A stretch of DNA of 64,000 bases from a virus: IMG/VR virus record IMGVR_UViG_3300032240_002045, positions 33,994-97,993 of that record. One strand, given 5' to 3'. Within the stretch, counting starts at the first letter, position 1. The number at the start of each line of letters is the position of its first letter. The position numbers and the translations under genes were made by a program. Under the pieces are notes generated by a model. That model did not search any database. It was given only the letters and a program-made list of their open reading frames with translations, and was not told where the DNA came from. This document shows, piece by piece, positions 1,586 to 64,000 of this stretch.

Positions 1586-1614
1586 AAAACTAGGGACACC
1601 CAAAGGTGCCCCTA
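1586..1614 (-). terminator. Hairpin plus T run between hsp20 and the tRNA (terminator or pre-tRNA leader)
   Basis: TAGGGGCACC-TTTG-GGTGTCCCTA-GTTTTT. Confidence 0.5.
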
Positions 1615-1646
1615 GGACAAGGTAGCGATACTCTGTCGAGCTTAGT

Positions 1647-2141
1647 CTACTTGATTTTTATAGTTTTTGGTTTTAGCTCTTCTGGAATTTGACGTTCTAC
1701 AGTGATAGTTAACAAGCCGTCTTTAAGATCGGCCCCCTTAACTACCATGTATTCGCCAAGTACAAATTGCTGTGTCCATAAACGTTTTGCAATGCCTTGA
1801 TGAAGAACCTCATCGGTATCTTCGTCAACTTTTTCAATACTTTTTACTTTAAGAAGGTCTTTTTCTACAGTAATTTCTACATCTTCTTTTGAATACCCCG
1901 CTAAAGCTAATTCTACTTTGTAAGTATCATCATCAACTTTTAACAAGTTATAGGGTGGAAAAGAAGACTGTTTAATGGGTAAAGTAGACCAACGATGAAT
2001 TTGATCTTGAAACCCTAAAAAGAATTGATTACTTAAAATTTCGTTTAAACTCGTTTGATTATTAACAATCTTATGAGCAAACGCTGGTGTTAATTTAGGA
2101 TTTGGGTGATCCCATTGAGGATTTGCAAGGCCTGAAGCCAT
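1647..2141 (-). CDS. Small heat shock protein (Hsp20/IbpA family)
   Basis: FPPYNLLK, VELALAGY, LHQGIAKR, GADLKDGLLTI and C-terminal IKIK; AAGGAG RBS. Confidence 0.95.
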   Translation of the reverse strand: MASGLANPQWDHPNPKLTPAFAHKIVNNQTSLNEILSNQFFLGFQDQIHRWSTLPIKQSSFPPYNLLKVDDDTYKVELALAGYSKEDVEITVEKDLLKVKSIEKVDEDTDEVLHQGIAKRLWTQQFVLGEYMVVKGADLKDGLLTITVERQIPEELKPKTIKIK

Positions 2142-5433: not shown

Positions 5434-5757
5434 TCACGCTTTTTTAAGCTCTACCCATTCCTTTAAAGTTTTTCCCGCTTTTGTTGCTTTACGTTTTAAC
5501 GCGTTGCGTTCGCGGTGTGACATGCCTCCCCATATACCGTGTTGTTCATCCATCTTGTCTGCGTACAACAAGCATTGTTTACGAACAGGGCATTCAGGTA
5601 ATCCATCTTTACCGTAACACACTGCTTTAGATATCTCCGCAATTGGTTTGTACTTTGCTTTATCTCTTGGGGGATACCAAAGCTCCGTGTCTAATCCACG
5701 GCATTTAGCGTTGTATCGCCAACTTTCGACATGCTCGTTATCTTGGTACAAGTACAC
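5434..5757 (-). CDS. whiB: WhiB-family transcription factor
   Basis: AKC..CPVRKQCL..HGIWGGMSHRER. Confidence 0.92.
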   Translation of the reverse strand: MYLYQDNEHVESWRYNAKCRGLDTELWYPPRDKAKYKPIAEISKAVCYGKDGLPECPVRKQCLLYADKMDEQHGIWGGMSHRERNALKRKATKAGKTLKEWVELKKA

Positions 5758-11791: not shown

Positions 11792-13381
11792 TTAGACCGC
11801 AGAAGCCCCTAGGAAGGCTTTTAAGCTCCCAACCGTCATTGGAATACCCCCCTTGTCGTCAATCCCCTCACCGTCCACCACAGCACTTGCTAGGGCATTT
11901 TTCTGTTGAAGAGACTCAAACTGACGTTCTTCAATAGATCCTTGGACAATCAAATCTTGAATAACTATCGACGGCCACGTTGACGAAGCGCGTTTAATGC
12001 GGCCATTGCGTTGGGTAGCAGCGCCAGAAGACCATGGTAAATCAAAGTTGATAAGAAGGTTAGCAGCAGGCAGGTCCACGCCGTAACCCCCAGCATCAGA
12101 GCTAATAAGAACACGGATATTGGGTAAAGTATTAAATGCAATTTTGTTCTCCTCTTTAGTTTTAGCGTCAATTTTACCTGAGTAAAGTCGACATTGATCT
12201 GGACCTAACGCTTCTGCAATCATATTTAACATGTCTACATAAGTTGCAAAAATAACAACTTTGTTAGCGTCATTTTGATCAAGAAACTCATTTACGTATT
12301 GAATTAGGTAATCAAGTTTTGGGGAATTATCTAAACCATCAAGCGCTCCTGATTGTTTTAAGTCATTAGCGTAAGCAGATCCTTCACCTTTTGCATCAAG
12401 GTATTTCTTTGAACTTGTATGTAACAGTTGCGGATGGGAACAAAGCATTTTTAAACAACCTACCTTAGACATAATACGTCCGCGGATTTCATCTTCTGGA
12501 CCACCGTGCTTGTTTTCATACCCGTAATGAGCCATTACGTTAAATCCAGCGCCAAAAAGGTTCTGCGCTTCATCAAGGTCATTAACCAAATCGTTAGCTA
12601 TGCGGGCGTACAAACGGGAAGATTTACGGTCTAGAACAATCTTTACCGGCTCTTTATGAATTGAGTCGGGCAAGAAAGGAGCAACGTCAGCATCTTTCTG
12701 AGCTTTACGTACACATGCATCTTTAAGTTTTGTATGAAGCACGGGCAGATTGCGATAGTTGTTAACCGCTCCCCAATTGTTACGTACGATAAAAGTAGAG
12801 TCAAAAATATCAAATCTACCTAATACGCCAGGGTCTACAAACTGCATGATGCTGTACAGCTCTTCCGGCTTACCATTCTCAATTGGGGTGCCAGTTAAAG
12901 CAAATCTAAAATCAGCATTGCCTAGCTTCTTTACAGCTTTAGATCTTTTTGATTTAAAAGACTTAATAGCTGTTGCTTCGTCAAGTACTACAAATCCGCG
13001 AGGTAAGTTTCGTACGGACTCCCAATCATTGACAACTTGTTCATAATTAAGAATGATGTAATCGACCCCAGAATTACGCCAATCAAGGGCTTCTTGGTAC
13101 TGCTCACTTCGTTTCTTAGGCGTTCCATCAATAACAAGAGACTTTGAAGTTCCATTTGTAAATTTTCCAATCTGGTTGTGCCATTGGTATTTAAGACTTG
13201 ATAAACAAATAACAAGCCCTGGCTCTTTGATTTTCTTTTCATCCATCAAGCGCTCAATTGCGGCAATAGTCAAAACTGTTTTGCCAAGACCTAAGTCGTA
13301 CGCAACCAGCATCTTTTGTCGGTCGCACATGCGATCAACTGCTTCTGGTTGGTAGGGCAATAATGTCCCTGTAAAAGTCAT
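11792..13381 (-). CDS. SNF2-family superfamily II helicase
   Basis: DLGLGKT, LDEA, LTGTPIEN, AGGYGVDL and QRNGRIKR. Confidence 0.92.
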   Translation of the reverse strand: MTFTGTLLPYQPEAVDRMCDRQKMLVAYDLGLGKTVLTIAAIERLMDEKKIKEPGLVICLSSLKYQWHNQIGKFTNGTSKSLVIDGTPKKRSEQYQEALDWRNSGVDYIILNYEQVVNDWESVRNLPRGFVVLDEATAIKSFKSKRSKAVKKLGNADFRFALTGTPIENGKPEELYSIMQFVDPGVLGRFDIFDSTFIVRNNWGAVNNYRNLPVLHTKLKDACVRKAQKDADVAPFLPDSIHKEPVKIVLDRKSSRLYARIANDLVNDLDEAQNLFGAGFNVMAHYGYENKHGGPEDEIRGRIMSKVGCLKMLCSHPQLLHTSSKKYLDAKGEGSAYANDLKQSGALDGLDNSPKLDYLIQYVNEFLDQNDANKVVIFATYVDMLNMIAEALGPDQCRLYSGKIDAKTKEENKIAFNTLPNIRVLISSDAGGYGVDLPAANLLINFDLPWSSGAATQRNGRIKRASSTWPSIVIQDLIVQGSIEERQFESLQQKNALASAVVDGEGIDDKGGIPMTVGSLKAFLGASAV

Positions 13382-21865: not shown

Positions 21866-23580
21866 TAGCTTAAGATACCCCCAGTAAGAGTTAAGCCTAT
21901 GTTGGTTGCGTAATCAGTTTTTGGGATTTCATTAACGTTACAAACAATATCCCCAACTGTTAATGCCGTAACGCCGTTTGCAATGCTTACTACGGTTGTT
22001 GAAACATTTCCCGCAATACAAGCATATGAAAAAGTAGTTCCTGTAACAACCGTAACAACGTACGTTCCGTCAAAAGTGCTATCCACTCCAGTAACTTTAA
22101 TGGTTGTTCCAACGGTTAAAGTGTGAGTAACACTTGTAGTTAAAGTTGCCACATTTGAGGTAAGAATTTTATTTGTAATATTGTAAGTTTTATCTTGGTC
22201 TGATCGAACAAGTTTTGTAATTGCAACTCTAGAGACCCCGTCTATAGAAGCTATTGTTGTCATAACATCTTGCAAAGTAATTCTGTCGCCAAAGGCAACG
22301 TTTTCAAATGCAAGTAACTCTGTCAAAATTGCGTTTATATCTGTTTGAACAAGAGATTGTCGGTATTGAGGTAGCACAGTGATTGATGCGTTAATAAGAA
22401 CTGTTACATAAGAAGGTGGTTGAAATGTTATGGTCGTATTTGCTGGAATTTTGTCTGTCATATACGACGATACTGTTGTTTTAAGAGAATTAAAGATTGT
22501 GGAGGGTGTTACGCCATCTACTTGAACTCCCGAATCTCCGTAAGGAGCAAAAAATACAGTTACACTTGTGTATACATCTGCAATAGCTGTTGCTTTAGCA
22601 ACTCCAGATACTTGTACAACAAGGGACGCATAGTCTGATAAAGCTACGGCTCGGTTTAAAGTTTTAATACTTGCGGGCGCTGATACGCGAATTGAATCAG
22701 TGCTTTCCTGATCAGCTCCTCCGCTAGCAGATCCCGGAATTGATGAAGAAATGTATTTATTAAGAACTGTTAACCCTGTTGCGGAAAAGTTAGTAATGTA
22801 CTTAATAGTGTTAACCGCAACATTTCCGGCAGCTCCTCCACCAATTCTATAGGTGGCTGTAATTTGAGCCGTATTTGGCGGAATACGTCCGCTAATACCG
22901 TCACCAAACACAATGTAAGTAACACCATTACCGTTTGTGTATGTAGAAAATACTGGGTCATAGCCATTGTAATCAATAAGATACGGAACTTGGGTGTAGT
23001 TAGTGCCGCCCACTACAACTGAAATGCTTCCGTTAATAACGGAAGATTGGTTTAATTCAAAAGATTGATTTACTGTTCCGTCTGAGGTACCAATCTGCTC
23101 ATCTGTAATAGTTTGCCCTTGAGTAACCGTAACCGTAGTTGTAGTAGAACCCGCCGGTACAACGACGGCAGCATCGGTTTCAAAGATAATTTGAGTTGTA
23201 GAAGCATTAGAAACTGCAGAAGTTGCTACTTTTGTAAGTTTAGGGACAGTAACGTTAACAGCGGATGTGTTACTAAATGTAACCGTACAGGTAGCTGCGG
23301 TTGGTTCTGTTGGCTTATACCCTAAAAGTTTTGCTAATTGAAGGACGTTTTCACGTTGGCTAGCTGTAGAGATAAATGCTTCATTTGCAGATTTATCAAT
23401 ATAATAATTAAGGATATCTCCCATATAGGCAAACGTTTCAAGGATGGTCATGCCAAAATCTGCGGGATCGCGGTTTGTCCAAAGTGGGGCATAGTATGGA
23501 ATTAGATCAACTAGATCTGCGCGAAGAGATGTGTAATCTCTAGAGGTGTAATCCACCTGTGGGATGTAATTGCTTGCCAT
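21865..23580 (-). CDS. Baseplate J-like protein
   Basis: DYTSRDY, FGDGISGRIPP, YRIGGG, GGADQES and RAVALSDY. Confidence 0.92.
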   Translation of the reverse strand: MASNYIPQVDYTSRDYTSLRADLVDLIPYYAPLWTNRDPADFGMTILETFAYMGDILNYYIDKSANEAFISTASQRENVLQLAKLLGYKPTEPTAATCTVTFSNTSAVNVTVPKLTKVATSAVSNASTTQIIFETDAAVVVPAGSTTTTVTVTQGQTITDEQIGTSDGTVNQSFELNQSSVINGSISVVVGGTNYTQVPYLIDYNGYDPVFSTYTNGNGVTYIVFGDGISGRIPPNTAQITATYRIGGGAAGNVAVNTIKYITNFSATGLTVLNKYISSSIPGSASGGADQESTDSIRVSAPASIKTLNRAVALSDYASLVVQVSGVAKATAIADVYTSVTVFFAPYGDSGVQVDGVTPSTIFNSLKTTVSSYMTDKIPANTTITFQPPSYVTVLINASITVLPQYRQSLVQTDINAILTELLAFENVAFGDRITLQDVMTTIASIDGVSRVAITKLVRSDQDKTYNITNKILTSNVATLTTSVTHTLTVGTTIKVTGVDSTFDGTYVVTVVTGTTFSYACIAGNVSTTVVSIANGVTALTVGDIVCNVNEIPKTDYATNIGLTLTGGILS

Positions 23581-27210: not shown

Positions 27211-29309
27211 TTAGTGGCCGCTCCCTTAATTAGTTCTTCGCTTTCCAATAAACGTTTAAATTCATCAAAAAGTTGTTGAGCATTTTTACCATCCGCGTTA
27301 ATTTGAAGAGTAACTCCGCCAAGGTTATAAACTTTTCCATTATCACCAGTTGCTTTAAAACCAGCTAAACCTTTGTAGCCTGAGTTAGTTCCGCCATTTC
27401 CACCATCCCAGCTTGAAGAAAGGATTGCAGCAATAGCCGTTGTTTCATCGCCAGATTTTAAAGCGGCAATAATATTATCGTAACCTCTTGAAGCGCTGTC
27501 TTTTCCAGTTAAAGTTTTTGCGGTTGCAGATACTCCAGCTTCCCAACTTCCATAAGCTTTAACACCTGAATCAAGTTGACCTACAGCGCCCTCATCTAAT
27601 TTTGTATTAAGTGGGTTATATGCTGCACTGTTTTTCCAGTGACCGCCTTCTTTTTGTTCCCACATAACAAGTGCATCAATTGCACCTTTAGTTGGTTTAA
27701 TATTTAATTGTGTAAGAAGGGCAGAAGCAAACGCTTTTTGTCCCTTAGAAGAGTCTTTGTTACTGATGGTCATGTTACCGGCGCGAGGACCCCGTGGAGT
27801 TTGGGCTTGATACTCATATGATTGATCGGTCGCTGTTCCCTTTGGACCGCCAGCTGTCCCTGAGCCAGTTGACGGTAGAGTTCCGCCACCCACGGCTCCG
27901 GTTCCGCCCATAGGGCCAGTTTCATCAATTCCATATGCCGCAAATAGCCCTGTTCCAGCAAGAATTGCTGCTATCGCGGAATTTATTTTGCCGCCTCCAG
28001 CAATCTTTGATGCAATTACTTTTTCACCTGCTCCGCCAGCTGCTCCTAAAAACGTAACAATTGCCGCATTCATTGAGGTAAGTTTCTTTAACATACCAAG
28101 AGAGTTTTTAGTAATTGCTTCGCTCATATCAGAAATTGCATTAGCTGCTGTTGTGTATCCAGATGCACCAGCATCTTGTACACCCGCTAATTGTTTTGTA
28201 GCTGTTGAAGCGCGTCGACTTGTAGCAAGTACTGCGGTAGTTGTAGCTCCCAGTTCATTTAATTTTTCTTTAGATATAGCTTCTCCACCGGTTTCAGCTT
28301 TAAACAAAAGACCGTTAGCAACCATTTGTTTAGCCATTGGGTCATTTCCAAAATACATTTCAAGCATTGAGTCCATAGAGTTTCCTGGTTGTAAACCGAT
28401 TTGCATCTCTTGTTTGCTTGGTTTTTTACCAGAGCCATAGTTAGCTGAGTAATCTCGACAAATTTTTAACCACAAATCTTGAATAATTTGATCAGGCGGT
28501 TTCATATTGCCTTCAGCGTCGCGGATTTGAATACCGATACCGCGAAGCATATTTACATTTCGACCCTGTTGCATCGAACCGTAAGCTCGCATTGTTCCTT
28601 CAAATCCCTGTCCTGGGATGAGGTTAGATGCGCTTGCAACTCCCATAGCTACGCTATTAGCACCACCAGTTATATTAGGGCCAGATATACCCATGCTCTG
28701 TGCGGCAGCTAGCCCTCTTTGTACATCCATTGAGTTTGTAATTGTTCCTGCGCTAGCAAGACTGCCTACAGTGCCTTTCATGTTGTTGTAGGCTTGATTA
28801 GACCCAATTTGTTTATTAAAATTGTTAAAGTAGGAAGTACGGGCCATAAGAAGTTGGCTTTCAACAGCTTCTCCTGGAGAGAACATCATTCCACTTGCTA
28901 TAGACCCTGCGTATAAAGCTCCAGCCGCGGGGTTGTTTTTAATATAACTAGATAGATTAACGCCACCGCCACCGCCCGAGCCACCATTGCTTGTGTTAAC
29001 GTTATTAACTGGCGGTACGGTTGCAACAATATTTCCGCCCATAGGCTGATACGGAACCATAACTCCGCCAGCACTTTGATAATCCCTACTCCCAGCTGGA
29101 GGGGTAAATTTAGGGTTGGCAGCTACTTGAGTGCTGCTATAGCCACCGCCGCCTCCGCCGCCTCCGCCGCCTCCGCCAGACATGCGGGAAACGCCAGAGC
29201 TTAAGCTACTGACCCATCCTGCAGTGTCTTGCTTAAGAAGGTTCATTTGCTGGCGTACGTCAGAAAGGCCGTTCTTTATATCAACAATGACATTTTTTGG
29301 ATCTGCCAT
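27207..29309 (-). CDS. Tape measure protein with C-terminal lysozyme-like domain
   Basis: Position; A/G-rich helical sequence; WEQKEGG..YNPLNT..VKAYGSWEAGVSATAKTL..Y. Confidence 0.8.
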   Translation of the reverse strand: MADPKNVIVDIKNGLSDVRQQMNLLKQDTAGWVSSLSSGVSRMSGGGGGGGGGGGGYSSTQVAANPKFTPPAGSRDYQSAGGVMVPYQPMGGNIVATVPPVNNVNTSNGGSGGGGGVNLSSYIKNNPAAGALYAGSIASGMMFSPGEAVESQLLMARTSYFNNFNKQIGSNQAYNNMKGTVGSLASAGTITNSMDVQRGLAAAQSMGISGPNITGGANSVAMGVASASNLIPGQGFEGTMRAYGSMQQGRNVNMLRGIGIQIRDAEGNMKPPDQIIQDLWLKICRDYSANYGSGKKPSKQEMQIGLQPGNSMDSMLEMYFGNDPMAKQMVANGLLFKAETGGEAISKEKLNELGATTTAVLATSRRASTATKQLAGVQDAGASGYTTAANAISDMSEAITKNSLGMLKKLTSMNAAIVTFLGAAGGAGEKVIASKIAGGGKINSAIAAILAGTGLFAAYGIDETGPMGGTGAVGGGTLPSTGSGTAGGPKGTATDQSYEYQAQTPRGPRAGNMTISNKDSSKGQKAFASALLTQLNIKPTKGAIDALVMWEQKEGGHWKNSAAYNPLNTKLDEGAVGQLDSGVKAYGSWEAGVSATAKTLTGKDSASRGYDNIIAALKSGDETTAIAAILSSSWDGGNGGTNSGYKGLAGFKATGDNGKVYNLGGVTLQINADGKNAQQLFDEFKRLLESEELIKGAATK
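29142..29177. repeat. 9-bp tandem repeat (GCCGCCTCC)x3 encoding poly-Gly
   Basis: Direct reading. Confidence 0.8.
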
Positions 29310-29471: not shown

Positions 29472-30255
29472 ACAAATCTGTCAAACTAAGCGGAAGATTA
29501 ATATCTTCACCGCATGCCTGACAAGCTTTCTTCACCTCCCCGAGGCGTGGTCCCGGGTTACGTTTAATAATTTCGTCAAGAATTTTAGTTCGGTCAGCCA
29601 TACCTAAACTAAGAGCTGTAGTTGCTCCAGAAGATGGTCGATCGTCAATTCCTGTAATACATCCAGCTAACAAAATGGTGTTAATTTCCGCCACAGTTTT
29701 ATCTGTGTTATCAACCAACTTTTTTTGAACTATACCGTTTGGAAGAATTACAGAAACAGCCCCGCTTTTAGTTAACACTTTAAAGCTTCTGTCTGCAATT
29801 GGGTCTTCTAATGTTTGTGTTGGAACGTCTTCTACAAGGTCAATTTCTGCAGTTTGAGGTTGGTTACAATTTGGACATTGAATATTAAGAGAAAGAGTTT
29901 CCCCAAAAGTTGCTCTGCGAATACCGATTAAAATTGCGTCTCGATCACCCGAAAGCAAACTATCAATGTACTCTTTAGTAACTTCTTCATTTCCAAGTTT
30001 TACAAGCCCTCTTTGCAAAAGAACGTTAAAAGCTTTTGCCGAAGATCCTGCTTTAGCAATTACTTCTTCATCCATTCCATTGAGCTCTTTAACTTCAGCC
30101 GTCCGAATGACCTCACCAGATTTACTGATAAGGCCACCCGGCAACTGAACTTCTGACTCTGAAGGAGCCGTAGTTTTAATAACTGCGGCAGGTTCCTCCA
30201 TTGCTTTTGCTGCAAATTGTGATACAAGTTCTGCATCTGTAATGATGTTAGACAC
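29461..30255 (-). CDS. Tail assembly chaperone (T4 gp26/gp51-like, two CxxC)
   Basis: VKELNG.DEE, LLSGDRDAILIGIR..TFG, CPNC and CQACG; lies between tube and tape measure genes. Confidence 0.8.
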   Translation of the reverse strand: MSNIITDAELVSQFAAKAMEEPAAVIKTTAPSESEVQLPGGLISKSGEVIRTAEVKELNGMDEEVIAKAGSSAKAFNVLLQRGLVKLGNEEVTKEYIDSLLSGDRDAILIGIRRATFGETLSLNIQCPNCNQPQTAEIDLVEDVPTQTLEDPIADRSFKVLTKSGAVSVILPNGIVQKKLVDNTDKTVAEINTILLAGCITGIDDRPSSGATTALSLGMADRTKILDEIIKRNPGPRLGEVKKACQACGEDINLPLSLTDLFRL

Positions 30256-38860: not shown

Positions 38861-40341
38861 AGGTCCGCCGTAAATCCAATATAAGCGGTTGCATCGTTGC
38901 TACCGTTTAAAGTATATGTTCTGTATTGAGTTAACCCGGTTGATACGGCATTAAACCACCCTGTTGGAGATAGCTCTGTTGTTCCTAATATAGTAAAACT
39001 ACTTACAGCGGATGTAACGCTTACCGTATCGTATAAACGAAAGTTTCCACCAAATTCAAGAGCATAAGGAGAAACCCTCATAGTTACCGGTGAAAAATTA
39101 GGAAATTGAGCACCAACAGTTGCTGCTGCAATGCCCCAGTTAGGAAATCTTGCATAGGTTGCCCCAGCTGTCCAACGGGAATAATGACGTTGGCAAAGCA
39201 TTAACTCTGTTGCGTAGTTTCCTGTTGCTGTTTGAAACGGAGTTGCGGCAGATCCCGGTTCTAATTGAATACCAGTAATAGAAAAAGTTCCCGCATAAGC
39301 ACCGGTGTTTAAGTAAGGGACAATACTTAAAGCTAAGTTAGTTCCAGCGGGGCTAGCCGCAATAGTAAATGTGGTAGAAAATCTTCCCCAGGATGTGCTT
39401 GGAACACCAAGAGAGTTTCCGCCGACCACGGTTACCGGATTACCGCCACCAGCGGCAAGTGAATCTAAGAAAGCTGCGTAAAAAGTTAATTGAGAGGTTA
39501 CACTTGTTGAAGTTTTGGCATAAAAAGAAATTGTCCATGTAGATCCAATTTGAAAAGGACCGGCATTTCCTGCCGCTGGGAGTTCAATACTTTGTCTAAT
39601 AGCCGGATTTCCAACCGACCCTGTTATGTCCATACAATAAGGAATAAATCCCGGACCTGTACCACGAGCAGCTGTAGCGGTTGAATCGGGACGCCAACGA
39701 TCTGCTGCAAAAGCATTTCCACTTGAAAATGTAATTCCACGTTGCCAAATTGACATATCTGAGTTTAAAACTTTGTTAACGCCCTGTGACGCATATGATT
39801 TCCAAGAAACACCAGTTGTTGCTGCAGAATCTGCAACTAGCACTTGATCGTTACCGCCTACTGGAAGTCTGGCTGTAGTGTTGTCCGCAGTGGCAACGTA
39901 TAGGTCGCCTTTTGCATCCACTAAAGATTTAGGCAAATACTTATTATCGGCTTGGCTAGTTGTGTACACATCAGTTACTGCAAGGTTAGGTGTGCAAAAT
40001 ACCTCTATTACATCTCCCGCAACCGTGGCATCTACAAGGGTAATAGTTGTTCCATCTGTAGCTGCGTAATCAACTCCGCGGACTAGCAATACTCCGTTGA
40101 GGAATACTTCTTCATAGTTAGGGGTATAAACAAGTGAGAAGTTACCGTCATCATTAAGAGCTGTAAATACTGTGGTTCCCGCGGCGGGGGTTTTCTTCCA
40201 ACGAAGACGCTGAATAGAGGATGCAACACCGTCAGTCTTTACCCAGATTGAGCCATCTACTATGCCCGTAGGCTCAGTAGTGGTGGCAAAAGATCTGGCA
40301 TTAGACTGCGAGTTGTCGGCATTTACCCGGGAGCGCGTCAT
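38857..40341 (-). CDS. Fibre/receptor-binding protein with CBM-like domain
   Basis: VFLNGVLL..DY; AKGDL; WQRG..DRW..QLEPGS..ELMLCQRHY. Confidence 0.75.
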   Translation of the reverse strand: MTRSRVNADNSQSNARSFATTTEPTGIVDGSIWVKTDGVASSIQRLRWKKTPAAGTTVFTALNDDGNFSLVYTPNYEEVFLNGVLLVRGVDYAATDGTTITLVDATVAGDVIEVFCTPNLAVTDVYTTSQADNKYLPKSLVDAKGDLYVATADNTTARLPVGGNDQVLVADSAATTGVSWKSYASQGVNKVLNSDMSIWQRGITFSSGNAFAADRWRPDSTATAARGTGPGFIPYCMDITGSVGNPAIRQSIELPAAGNAGPFQIGSTWTISFYAKTSTSVTSQLTFYAAFLDSLAAGGGNPVTVVGGNSLGVPSTSWGRFSTTFTIAASPAGTNLALSIVPYLNTGAYAGTFSITGIQLEPGSAATPFQTATGNYATELMLCQRHYSRWTAGATYARFPNWGIAAATVGAQFPNFSPVTMRVSPYALEFGGNFRLYDTVSVTSAVSSFTILGTTELSPTGWFNAVSTGLTQYRTYTLNGSNDATAYIGFTADL

Positions 40342-58409: not shown

Positions 58410-58469
58410 ATCCCCCTTCTGTAATTAACATGCGTAGTTTAGCACGAATGTCGACAAACCGATAAGACG

Positions 58470-59332: not shown

Positions 59333-60928
59333 CTATCTATAAAACGGTGATGACGACATTTCGACAGAGGGCATAGTCAGATCGATAGTTAACGAGCAAG
59401 CGATAGCTAAAGAATCCGCAAAATCATCGTGAGCGTGGGCTTCCTCGGGCGCATGTGCCAAGAAGTTAGGACCAGTAAATTTAGTCTCTAGGTCCGTCAT
59501 TTGTTGGTAAAAACGCTTCCAAGTACGAAGGCGGCGAGTTTTTGCATGAGCCGGCCATCCCACCATTCTACGATCAAGCAAAGCTTTAAGGTGTTTCCAG
59601 CGCTTAGATTGTTCTGGTTGACTACTTCCAATAGCGTGAACTTCCGCCCTTGGTAACAAAAGTTTAAGGCGTTGGGCTACCGCATCGCCAACACCGTTAG
59701 CGTCAACCCCCACAGCAAGCACATCGTAGTTAGAAAGAAAGTTAACAATTTGGAAATATTGATCTTCCCAATCATCGCCTTGAATTTCCATCCAATTAAG
59801 TATTCGGTGGTCAAAGTAACCAAATTCGTCTGGGCGATCCCAGTCAACCCATACAACGGTTACAACAGTAGAGTCAAGTTTACGCGCAGGGTCAATACCA
59901 ACAACTACAGGAGAACGGTGCCAAGCCTTGACTATTTCTTGAGACGTATCACCAAGTTCATCCATAACTGCGGATGTGACAAACATACCGCGCTCAAGTA
60001 ACCACTTGTTAGAGTACGACATTTGGAACTCGTCCGAGTCCTCGCCGATACGCAACATCTCTTTTTTAATGAACTTACCGTAGTTAGCGTTGTTCTTAGC
60101 TACTTCCCGCCAGTCCCATTCAAAGTGGTTTTGTCTGGATCCTCGACCTGTCTGGCGTCGCTTGTTTAATTGGATAGATCGGTAAAAATTATTTTTGTGC
60201 GTGGTAGGTGTGCCTGTCTTAACCATAGTTCCTGAGTAGTACGCAAGCATTGGGGATATTGACTTTGATACTACAAAGTCATCTGCCTCTTGACACTCGT
60301 CAATAACAATAAGATGGAAAGACTTAGATTCAATTTTTGCGCGAGGGTTTGCAGTCATCATCATTAAAGATGAGCCTGAGTTCTTTAACTTAATTTGGCG
60401 GGTTACTCCCGGCACTTTTCCAAGAGAGTCATCAATCTCTGGATCTCCCAAGATCTCTAGTGCACGCTCAGATGTAAGGCGATTTACTGTACGACCAAAG
60501 AGAGTTTCTACCTGGCCCTCAACGGGTGCAAACATTCCAATCCAGACGCCGTTCTTAAACTTACCTAGAAGGTCTGGGTACATGCGTGCCAGGCGTGGCA
60601 AAAGAACCATAAGCGTAGCCACGGTGTTTGCGATTGTTTCTGACTTACCTGACTGGCGTGCCGCTAGCGCGGTTACTTCTTCACCGTCGTTAATAATTAC
60701 AGACTCAATAACACGCCTAGCAAGCGGCATCTGGTATGGGTGAAGCTCATGGCCTACAAGGGCTGTCATGAATTGAATACAGCGGTCTACAATCTTTTTG
60801 ACAAACTCTTTAGATAGTTCGTCGAGTTCTTCTTCCAGATCTTCTTCAGGCGCTAAGTCCTCTTCGTCAGGAAAAAACTCTTCGTCATCTTCGTCTACTA
60901 ATATCGGTTGGTTGTCCATGTTGTCCAT
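59333..60928 (-). CDS. Terminase large subunit
   Basis: LHPYQ, ARQSGKSE, IVIDECQ, GTP, VGIDPA, VDANGVG and HDDFADS. Confidence 0.95.
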   Translation of the reverse strand: MDNMDNQPILVDEDDEEFFPDEEDLAPEEDLEEELDELSKEFVKKIVDRCIQFMTALVGHELHPYQMPLARRVIESVIINDGEEVTALAARQSGKSETIANTVATLMVLLPRLARMYPDLLGKFKNGVWIGMFAPVEGQVETLFGRTVNRLTSERALEILGDPEIDDSLGKVPGVTRQIKLKNSGSSLMMMTANPRAKIESKSFHLIVIDECQEADDFVVSKSISPMLAYYSGTMVKTGTPTTHKNNFYRSIQLNKRRQTGRGSRQNHFEWDWREVAKNNANYGKFIKKEMLRIGEDSDEFQMSYSNKWLLERGMFVTSAVMDELGDTSQEIVKAWHRSPVVVGIDPARKLDSTVVTVVWVDWDRPDEFGYFDHRILNWMEIQGDDWEDQYFQIVNFLSNYDVLAVGVDANGVGDAVAQRLKLLLPRAEVHAIGSSQPEQSKRWKHLKALLDRRMVGWPAHAKTRRLRTWKRFYQQMTDLETKFTGPNFLAHAPEEAHAHDDFADSLAIACSLTIDLTMPSVEMSSSPFYR

Positions 60929-60939
60929 AGTCTAGAAGA

Positions 60940-60971
60940 AAACAAAAAGCCTGGGCGTTTAAACCCAGGAC
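60940..60971 (-). terminator. Intrinsic terminator
   Basis: CCTGGG-TTTAAACG-CCCAGG-CTTTTTGTTTT. Confidence 0.75.
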
Positions 60972-61007
60972 CTTTTGGTGCCACCATACGGGGAGATGAA
61001 GAGAGGC
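60944..61007 (-). ncRNA. Candidate ~64-nt small RNA
   Basis: Own TAGACT -10 (61014-61019), C/U-rich 5' segment, own terminator. Confidence 0.4.
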
Positions 61008-61036
61008 GAGCGTAGTCTAACACAAAGTCGACAAAT

Positions 61037-61279
61037 CTATTTAACGGATCTTTTGTAAAGCTCTTCCACAACAGCATGCAAAGCCTCGGCACCTGTACGG
61101 GCCTCTTCTAAATAGAATGCTTCCCTGCTTTTGGTATAACCAGAAAGACAACGACCCACTTCATAGATTGACTGATCAATCCACATCTCTAACTCTGATG
61201 TAGGGATTCTAGAAACCCGTTTTGCAATTTTTTCTGGAAAAGGCTTTGTCCAAGCTTCTTTGTTAAAAAGTTTCATCAT
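61037..61279 (-). CDS. Hypothetical protein
   Basis: ORF overlapping its neighbour. Confidence 0.7.
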   Translation of the reverse strand: MMKLFNKEAWTKPFPEKIAKRVSRIPTSELEMWIDQSIYEVGRCLSGYTKSREAFYLEEARTGAEALHAVVEELYKRSVK

Positions 61280-63212: not shown

Positions 63213-63243
63213 TTGACAGGGGTTGTAAAGCCCGTGCTAAGGT
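63213..63243 (+). promoter_or_regulatory. Sigma-A-like promoter
   Basis: TTGACA-N19 with extended -10 TGcTAAGGT. Confidence 0.6.
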
Positions 63244-63298
63244 AGTTAATGACATGGCCACCAGCAATGGTGGCTTTTGCCTACTGAGAGGAGCAGCG

Positions 63299-63841
63299 AT
63301 GCTCAATATCAGAATTAATCTAACGATTAATCTAAAAAAGGTGTTTGCGGGCGGAATGGTAGCTTTTATGTTACTGGCCCACCTAATTACACCAGCGTAT
63401 GCTTTAACAGCTGTTGTAGAGCCTGTGGGGACCGAAAAGGTTGTCACTGTGTCTCTTACACACTTAAAAGTTAGTACGACTAAGAGCCAAGCTAAGAAAG
63501 CCTTAGCTAGCCCAAGCGTAAAGTATTTTGATGCTGAAGCGCTTGCATTCCTAACTGTATATACCCAAGATTGGTCTATAGCAGAATGGAAGTGCTTACG
63601 TAACATTTGGACAAAGGAAAGCCACTTCAATCCAAAAGCGGAAAACCGATCTTCAGGTGCTTACGGTATTGCACAATTTATGCCTTCAACATGGGGCAAC
63701 TACAAGGTCACTAAGACCACTAGCGCAGCATTACAAATTAAATACGGACTACATTATATTAAGAAAAGATACGGGAGCATAAATGACACCACAGGTGCGT
63801 GCAACGCGTGGAGATTCTGGCAACAGAAGGGCTGGTATTAA
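63299..63841 (+). CDS. Exported lytic transglycosylase (SLT/Rpf-like)
   Basis: GAGAGGAG RBS; signal/TM segment; CL..IWTKES.FNPKA.N.SSGAYGIAQF; YIKKRYG..CNAW.FWQ..GWY. Confidence 0.9.
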   Translation: MLNIRINLTINLKKVFAGGMVAFMLLAHLITPAYALTAVVEPVGTEKVVTVSLTHLKVSTTKSQAKKALASPSVKYFDAEALAFLTVYTQDWSIAEWKCLRNIWTKESHFNPKAENRSSGAYGIAQFMPSTWGNYKVTKTTSAALQIKYGLHYIKKRYGSINDTTGACNAWRFWQQKGWY

Positions 63842-64000
63842 TAACGCTCCGGCGTTTGACGGCAGTCAACCTTGTATATCACTGGACTTAGCTGTGTTTT
63901 TCCCCGATGATCGGGTAGAGGAAGCTAAAGCAGCACGAGAACTTAAATCTGTATGTAAAACGTGTAAGTTCCAAACCGCTTGTTTAGAGTGGGCGCTTGA
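63783..64000 (+). CDS. whiB: Second WhiB-family protein, truncated at the window edge (start uncertain)
   Basis: FDGSQPC....VFFP.....KSVCKTCKFQTACLEWAL. Confidence 0.85.
   Translation, partial: MTPQVRATRGDSGNRRAGINNAPAFDGSQPCISLDLAVFFPDDRVEEAKAARELKSVCKTCKFQTACLEWAL

Follow-up and report, generated by a model that had tools for sequence, protein, structure and literature searches.

A conserved promoter-RNA-terminator unit lies directly upstream of the large terminase gene of an uncultured actinophage

The window analysed here, 64,000 nucleotides long, forms the final 64 kb of an IMG/VR virus record of 97,993 bp that is rated complete. The phage genome has a G+C content of about 43% and contains two whiB-type genes, which together point to low-GC actinobacterial hosts. 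One of these genes lies at window positions 5497-5721 on the minus strand. The other occupies positions 63870-63998 on the plus strand and continues at genome positions 8-172; as it is split by the record ends, the direct terminal repeat reported for the record reflects a circular assembly and not true genome ends. No near-identical genomes were found among deposited phages, and the large terminase subunit (TerL) encoded in the window shows 55% identity to its counterpart in Streptomyces phage BRock. The phages represent a very abundant uncultured freshwater lineage, with at least 596 contigs encoding a TerL relative among the 599 matches listed in a TerL search.

The element described here is located on the minus strand of the 98-kb genome, between an 80-amino acid open reading frame (ORF) and terL. 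All surrounding genes are found on the minus strand except those encoding the transglycosylase (SLT) and WhiB. The 108 bases of the intergenic region hold, in this order, a predicted promoter (P1), a pyrimidine-rich RNA, a terminator, a second -10-like hexamer and the terL start (Table 1). An earlier sequence-only reading of this DNA had proposed a self-contained candidate small RNA composed of a TAGACT-N6 promoter, an anti-Shine-Dalgarno-like 5' end and a terminator. All three parts are present on the minus strand, the 5' end being pyrimidine-rich, and the promoter-RNA-terminator unit, as a self-contained entity, is real, so that the label of candidate small RNA holds. An RNA starting at position 61007 is predicted to be roughly 67 nt long, with a 5' tail that lacks purines and leads into the terminator. 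The consensus of the C/U tract contains two CCUCUC-like blocks, with UCCC(C)GU forming its most invariant core. The region contains three motifs with GAC (61027-61032, 61015-61019 and 60930-60934).

Table 1. Features of the terL upstream region and of its gene neighbourhood (window coordinates).
Feature	Position	Strand	Description
Transglycosylase (SLT) leader	63213..63301	plus	leader of a gene with an SLT domain; earlier proposed target of the RNA
Five small ORFs	62491-61037	minus	upstream of the element
80-aa ORF	stop at 61037	minus	directly upstream of the element
TCGAC box (TTGTCGAC)	61027..61034	minus	separated from the -10 by 7 nt; in many relatives a 10-nt palindrome
Extended -10 promoter P1 (predicted)	61014..61022	minus	TGn 61022-61020 and TAGACT 61019-61014
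Predicted transcription start G	61007	minus	six bases after the -10; placed by actinobacterial promoter geometry (PMC3898074)
C/U-only tract	60990..61006	minus	no purines
G/U tract	60977..60989	minus	includes UGGUGGC 60986-60980
Intrinsic terminator (predicted)	60939..60976	minus	7-bp G+C-rich stem, A-tract/U-tract extension, U-run
Terminator stem-loop	60969-60950	minus	within A/U extension 60976-60939; U-run 60948-39
Second -10-like hexamer TAGACT	60929..60934	minus	4 nt after the U-run
terL start region	60917..60928	minus	from alignments
Large terminase gene terL	59333..60928	minus	Pfam Terminase_6C and Terminase_6N
Two small ORFs	between terL and portal gene	minus	
Portal gene	58409-56694	minus	

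The unit is strictly linked to terL and its C/U tract is among the most conserved blocks

The intergenic region was aligned for 46 distinct versions using blastn and MAFFT. A pattern search recovered a 20-nt core in 76 contigs, with one copy in each, and in all 72 contigs extending far enough terL is located 3' of the core, on the same strand and at a fixed distance. A covariance model built from 50 versions detected the element immediately before terL, in the orientation of the gene, in 79 of the 80 loci examined, which had been retrieved using a 78%-identical TerL as query and include TerL relatives down to 73% identity. With this model, a single copy is detected in the present phage genome and none in BRock, LuckySocke, pSt2308 or Bacillus phage BCD7.

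Conservation is highest in two blocks, the C/U tract together with the start base (60990-61007) and the post-terminator hexamer, with majority fractions of 0.90 and 0.91, respectively. These are followed by the terminator (0.84) and the -10 hexamer (0.81), with values of 0.68-0.73 in flanking coding DNA and 0.47-0.60 in the spacers. The constant position of the unit next to terL and the terminator covariation described below place its conservation far beyond chance. Relatives show 1-2-nt insertions or deletions in the C/U tract, indicating that the tract is not coding; the same indels rule out a small 64-amino acid ORF that spans the region (60898-61092). The order of promoter before terminator is kept in all relatives examined. 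In BRock-like Streptomyces phages a hexamer resembling a -10 precedes terL by about 50 nt, without the RNA and terminator. Taken as an outgroup, these phages carry a -10 and a TGTCAA motif upstream of terL with a different box spacing, which supports the ancestry of P1 only weakly.

P1 resembles actinobacterial extended -10 promoters and belongs to a small class of predicted promoters

Among 77 distinct versions the P1 hexamer is found in 15 variants, all of which follow TAnnnT. TG is present at -15/-14 in 70 versions, the spacer between the -10 and the start measures 6-7 nt in 76, and the predicted start base is always a purine (G in 38 and A in 5 of 43 distinct versions). Actinobacterial promoters carry TANNNT 7-12 bp upstream of the start and no -35 element, with TGN accompanying the strongest promoters (PMC3898074). 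P1 displays this sigma-A-type extended -10 pattern (TGnTAnnnT, 6-7 nt, purine start) and, matching the rule, is predicted to be an extended -10 promoter.

A TCGAC box lies upstream of the -10 in 58 of the 77 distinct versions, at a distance of 7-8 nt (49 versions) or 16 nt (9 versions). The sequence TGNTANACT occurs only twice in the 64 kb, compared with 10 expected copies, namely at P1 and at a putative portal promoter 25 nt upstream of the portal Shine-Dalgarno sequence (SD). The latter (58436-58457, minus strand) consists of TTGTCGAC (58450-58457), 8 nt and then TGn with TAAACT. Many relatives likewise show a TCGAC box and an extended -10 upstream of the portal gene with a spacing of 7-8 nt. 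The shared box, spacing and extended -10 place P1 in a small class of predicted promoters found at packaging and head genes. As a box-to--10 spacing of 7-8 nt is too short for a normal -35 element, a putative factor may read the TCGAC box. Three perfect 10-nt palindromes, TTGTCGACAA, are located outside the window at genome positions 22600-22648 and 28398-28407, two of them 39 nt apart and beside a long (GA)n tract. These palindromes may be operator sites for the same putative factor.

The terminator helix covaries while the 5' region of the RNA is largely open

The terminator was called by a terminator scan and is composed of a 7-bp stem with five G:C pairs, a 6-nt loop and a run rich in U (DNA sequence T5-G-T4). 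For the 71-nt RNA, the predicted fold has an energy of -23.7 kcal/mol and a z-score of -3.6. Across 63 distinct sequences, 97.4% of the cells in the terminator helix are paired, compared with 31-53% in slid controls, and 12 of 13 pairs have changed on both sides, a result matched by none of 500 shuffles. By its stem-loop, U-run and covariation the structure has the make-up of a canonical intrinsic terminator. Elsewhere in the window, a strong terminator-like hairpin with a U-run directly precedes a tRNA-Asn gene (1586-1650, minus strand), with TAGACTA further upstream, representing another gene located directly behind a terminator.

In the 5' part of the RNA, the GGC of the G/U tract can close a weak hairpin with GCC at 61007-61005, yielding a loop of 16-26 nt and a fold of -4 to -7 kcal/mol. 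Two of the closing pairs are invariant C:G in 43 distinct versions. The third is G:C in 35, G.U in 3, A:U in 2 (compensatory, in two lineages) and A.C in 3. These pairs were counted with an anchored script; the MAFFT and covariance-model alignments shift the CT indel to the 5' end and misalign the GCC. Support for the putative 5' hairpin from these pairs is modest. A riboswitch- or T-box-style test revealed no antiterminator helix competing with either terminator arm in single-sequence or consensus folds.

A universal hexamer follows the terminator and in three lineages has the geometry seen at putative leaderless genes

All 77 distinct versions possess a TAnAnT hexamer 3-6 nt after the U-run, the position of which is anchored to the terminator and not to the ATG. 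The hexamer lies 9-10 nt before the ATG in 64 versions and exactly 6 nt before it, without an SD, in three versions representing three lineages. An SD-like triplet is found between hexamer and terL ATG in 72 of the 77 versions. The terL start of relatives reads AAGG-N5-ATG, with AAGG 5-6 nt before the ATG in most versions, and both AAGG and TAAGG are frequent SD-like motifs ahead of the genes of this phage. In the present genome and its closest kin, TAAGG has changed to TATGG, giving an extra in-frame upstream ATG (60928) and a tandem 9-nt repeat in which ATGGACAAC occurs twice (60911-60928, minus strand). The conserved terL start is probably the second ATG, at 60919.

Hexamers of the TAnnnT type ending exactly 6 nt before the ATG are found at 10 of 144 predicted genes compared with 2.3 expected, and at only one gene each for distances of 5 or 7 nt. 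Three of the ten start within the window at 13381, 36192 and 11558, all on the minus strand, and the other seven lie outside it; several have TGn ahead of the hexamer. The TAnnnT-N6-ATG geometry is typical of leaderless actinobacterial mRNAs (PMC3898074), and the excess in this phage suggests that, as in Actinobacteria, some of its genes form a leaderless class. The TCGAC box with an extended -10 and the TAnnnT-N6-ATG arrangement together provide a candidate promoter grammar for annotating such phages.

Complementarity to the transglycosylase leader is judged to be coincidental

The sequence-only reading had further proposed that the RNA acts in trans on the transglycosylase-whiB operon, repressing or tuning it by pairing of CCUCUC with GAGAGG in the SD and of UGGUGGC with GCCACCA in the 5' arm of the leader hairpin. 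Each complementarity is present in this genome, in the antiparallel order described. The SLT leader consists of a -35 (TTGACA), an extended -10, a hairpin (63257-63274) with 7 bp and a GCAA loop, four U and an SD, GAGAGGAG (63286-63293), followed by the ATG at 63299. GCCACCA (63257-63263) forms the 5' arm of the hairpin and GAGAGG (63286-63291) is part of the SD, which lies 5 nt before the ATG. The leader is conserved in 26 relatives with 14 nt around the SD being invariant. Its hairpin arms change often and each change is compensated inside the leader. As a structure in its own right, the SLT-whiB leader could represent a second promoter-proximal terminator or a 5' stabilizer.

In 20 relatives carrying both elements, the G/U tract of the RNA does not track changes in the leader arms. 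Cognate RNA-leader duplexes have an average energy of -24.6 kcal/mol compared with -24.2 kcal/mol for non-cognate duplexes in 21 x 21 combinations, and the rank of the cognate leader among the 21 leaders looks uniform between 1 and 21. With regard to co-conservation of the paired sites, a condition set by the sequence-only reading itself, the first (CCUCUC-GAGAGG) is invariant on both sides and thus uninformative and the second is not co-conserved, so that the two-site model fails this test. Both partners of the second site are already sequestered in their own hairpins; the 60-nt region of the SLT leader self-folds at -19.9 kcal/mol, helix included. In addition, a C-to-A change in this genome has removed a second, better CCUCUC block that most relatives carry. 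The sequence-only reading had itself allowed for chance matches, and genome counts as well as start-region ranks place the complementarity within chance. The genome contains 17 UGGUGGC-type 7-mers, close to the chance expectation. The 60-nt SLT leader window does fall within the top 0.5% of genome windows for duplex energy, but about 100 equals remain, and among 144 start regions the rank of the leader is 43 for the window seed, 20 for the consensus seed and 5 when all 31 nt are used. GAGAGG is rare and found at the SD of only 2-3 genes, which had favored the model; 12 copies are present on both strands of the whole genome compared with about 48 expected from length alone. From these comparisons we judge the pairing between RNA and SLT leader to be coincidence and consider two-site control of the operon extremely unlikely.

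Genome-wide scans and database searches return no co-varying target or known RNA family

The strongest duplexes in a genome-wide scan have energies of -40.4 and -37.2 kcal/mol, compared with -39.3 kcal/mol for the best of 25 shuffled RNAs. As these energies are barely beyond those of shuffled RNAs and both sites (29525-29554 and 40001-40030, minus-strand RNA) lie inside coding regions, they were taken as chance matches. At 29525-29554, just upstream of a putative tail-chaperone frameshift site, 14 contiguous pairs form with the first 30 nt of the RNA. At 40001-40030, 26 of 30 nt pair with the same stretch; the gene holding this site resembles tail-fibre genes, and four of five long related records lack it. 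The 80-amino acid gene has a start region complementary to the UCCCCGU core. This region was rejected as a target because it is part of the coding sequence of the preceding ORF and shows synonymous drift with no matching change in the RNA. Neither this region nor the SLT leader, the two candidates tested, shows co-varying complementarity.

In a search for host homologues or targets, the exact 20-mer core was absent from about 186,000 prokaryote genomes, and 17-mer core matches in prokaryote genomes were scattered over all phyla and taken as chance. Rfam at gathering thresholds detected only a tRNA within the window. At E<=10, only noise of 8-13 bits was observed at the element, with no match to 6C (RF01066) or any other family. 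The lack of an Rfam match indicates that the element represents a new RNA motif. A literature search found no report of such an element in actinophages; isolated phages that infect 'Ca. Nanopelagicales' have been reported (PMC10202952).

The unit may gate terL transcription by promoter-proximal termination

The reading we favor, if tentatively, is that a promoter-proximal terminated leader gates terL and releases an RNA of about 67 nt, with or without the help of a factor acting at the C/U tract. Transcription would start at G61007 from a promoter of the TCGAC box and extended -10 class, and the polymerase would copy the unstructured C/U-only tract followed by the G/U tract. Most polymerases would then stop at the intrinsic terminator and release the RNA. 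A minority of read-through transcripts would give rise to TerL translation, as only those carry the conserved AAGG ribosome-binding site, and a factor recognizing the near-invariant C/U tract may assist read-through. The anatomy of the unit, its conservation, the terminator covariation, the promoter signature and the linkage to terL are observed here, and the start site, termination efficiency, read-through and any such factor are inferred.

Several observations are consistent with terL gating. The unit is strictly linked to terL and present as a single copy in the genome, and the promoter class of P1 is otherwise seen at the portal gene. The hexamer about 50 nt upstream of terL in the BRock-like cousins fits terL opening its own transcription unit at this position. 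Given the conserved promoter-then-terminator order, transcripts from P1 must meet the terminator. Transcripts initiated from the downstream hexamer would begin 3' of the SD, so that SD-bearing terL mRNA must start upstream of the terminator. On the other hand, the presence of this hexamer in 77 of 77 versions and its leaderless geometry in three lineages argue that terL may have its own promoter with the upstream unit being independent. Folding revealed no antiterminator helix, the complete 98-kb record contains neither of the Q-type antiterminator domains PF06530 and PF03589, and the sigma-70 region 2 domain is absent from the phage genome; an antiterminator of an unrelated kind may still be encoded. 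Plain attenuation also does not explain the conservation of the C/U tract (0.90). For the sequence-only reading, an element that only attenuates terminase transcription had been an outcome counting against its small RNA. Attenuation has now become the leading reading, and release of the RNA would leave room for a further use as an sRNA.

The main alternative, which we consider somewhat unlikely, is a stand-alone trans-acting sRNA, with terL being transcribed separately from the hexamer at 60934-60929. A UCCC-type seed would pair with purine-rich, SD-like stretches of host or phage mRNA, or the RNA would titrate a pyrimidine-binding host factor. Such an RNA would account for a strong promoter signature and terminator of its own, for a C/U tract that is highly conserved and tolerates indels like a single-stranded pairing or binding tract, and for the universal post-terminator hexamer with its leaderless geometry in three lineages. 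Hfq-free sRNAs with C-rich seeds are known in Actinobacteria (PMC6486639). However, a trans-acting gene would not need strict adjacency to terL, and most versions keep an SD that only transcripts initiated upstream contain. The results for targets described above point in the same direction, given that neither tested candidate co-varies, the best genome duplexes barely exceed those of shuffled RNAs and map within coding sequence, and the prokaryote genomes searched lack the core. The leader and independent-sRNA readings are, in our analysis, compatible, as the terminated late-promoter leader of Shiga-toxin phages doubles as a trans-acting sRNA (PMC7547250). In a broader form that we regard as unlikely, a clade-wide and highly expressed sRNA would use its purine-free tail to mask purine-rich ribosome-binding sites or to soak up a pyrimidine-binding factor of the host, for example ribosomal protein S1. 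If true, late-infection translation could be tilted, for example toward the leaderless genes of the phage, by an RNA made from the very promoter that also feeds the terminase.

The conserved tract could also act within the transcript that contains it or at the level of DNA. Sites such as nut and put lie between a promoter and the first terminator, and a cis-acting RNA of this kind would load host Nus factors onto its C/U and G/U tracts or act on the polymerase so that only transcripts initiated at P1 pass this and later terminators and transcripts of the upstream operon stop. The terminator would then tell two transcript sources apart. The tract is conserved in sequence and not in structure, which fits this processive antitermination model; any likeness to boxA or boxC would be tentative. 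We nevertheless consider the model quite improbable, as the folds contain neither a boxB-like hairpin nor a put-like double stem-loop, Rfam returns no match and the portal gene has its own promoter copy 2.5 kb downstream, making long-range antitermination not obviously needed. Alternatively, the polypyrimidine/polypurine tract, the TCGAC box and the TAGAC-like repeats could bind a packaging protein (pac/TerS) or a regulator, with the terminator merely ending the upstream operon. A location beside terL would be usual for a pac site, three motifs with GAC occur in the region, and the terminal repeat of the record, which splits whiB, does not mark the true genome ends. Yet the -10 varies freely within TAnnnT and retains TG and the purine spacing, a behavior expected of a promoter and not of a protein site. 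The tract accepts 1-2-nt indels, and the terminator follows the promoter everywhere instead of preceding it, making this DNA-level explanation very unlikely.

The element is related in kind to short terminated leader RNAs and phage sRNAs

Short terminated leader RNAs and phage sRNAs are known in kind, but the motif, the phage clade and the promoter context described here are not catalogued. The element represents an uncatalogued RNA motif at what would be the switch point for packaging, and its comparative support is unusually clear. RsaE and RoxS are C-rich-seed sRNAs of Gram-positive bacteria. The actinobacterial 6C and B11 RNAs share with the element exposed C-rich or UCCC motifs followed by a terminator and possible Hfq-free pairing to SDs (PMC6486639). 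In contrast to their two stable C-rich loops, the element has at most one weak loop closed by 3 bp or an open 5' tail. It also differs in being phage-borne, locked to terL, without an Rfam 6C match and without a co-varying target. Should the released RNA act in trans, it would be among the few phage sRNAs known outside enterobacteria. The likeness to nut sites of lambda N and put sites of HK022, namely a conserved RNA element transcribed after the promoter and ahead of the first operon terminator, is positional only, and the element contains neither a boxB hairpin nor a put double stem-loop.

The closest parallel to terL gating is found in the lambda PR'-tR' region, the source of 6S RNA, and in StxS of Shiga-toxin phages, the short and abundant by-product RNA of a lambdoid late-promoter leader that can itself regulate (PMC7547250). 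In these systems an intrinsic terminator lies within about 70-200 nt after the promoter and ahead of the late genes, a short terminated RNA is made by default and late genes need read-through. The element shows the same promoter-close terminator and short predicted default transcript that characterize the lambda Q-type arrangement. Differences from PR'-tR' are the actinobacterial host, the predicted RNA length of about 67 nt, the restriction of the 5' end to C and U, and the lack of sequence similarity. No Q-family protein was found in the complete 98-kb record and no conserved -10-like pause element is present among the initial 25 nt of the predicted transcript; TATGGT, which lies some 20 nt from the start, is limited to close kin of the window, with most relatives carrying TGTGGT or lacking the motif. 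If terL is gated as proposed, the element would represent lambda-like promoter-proximal termination control in an actinophage without a recognizable Q protein.
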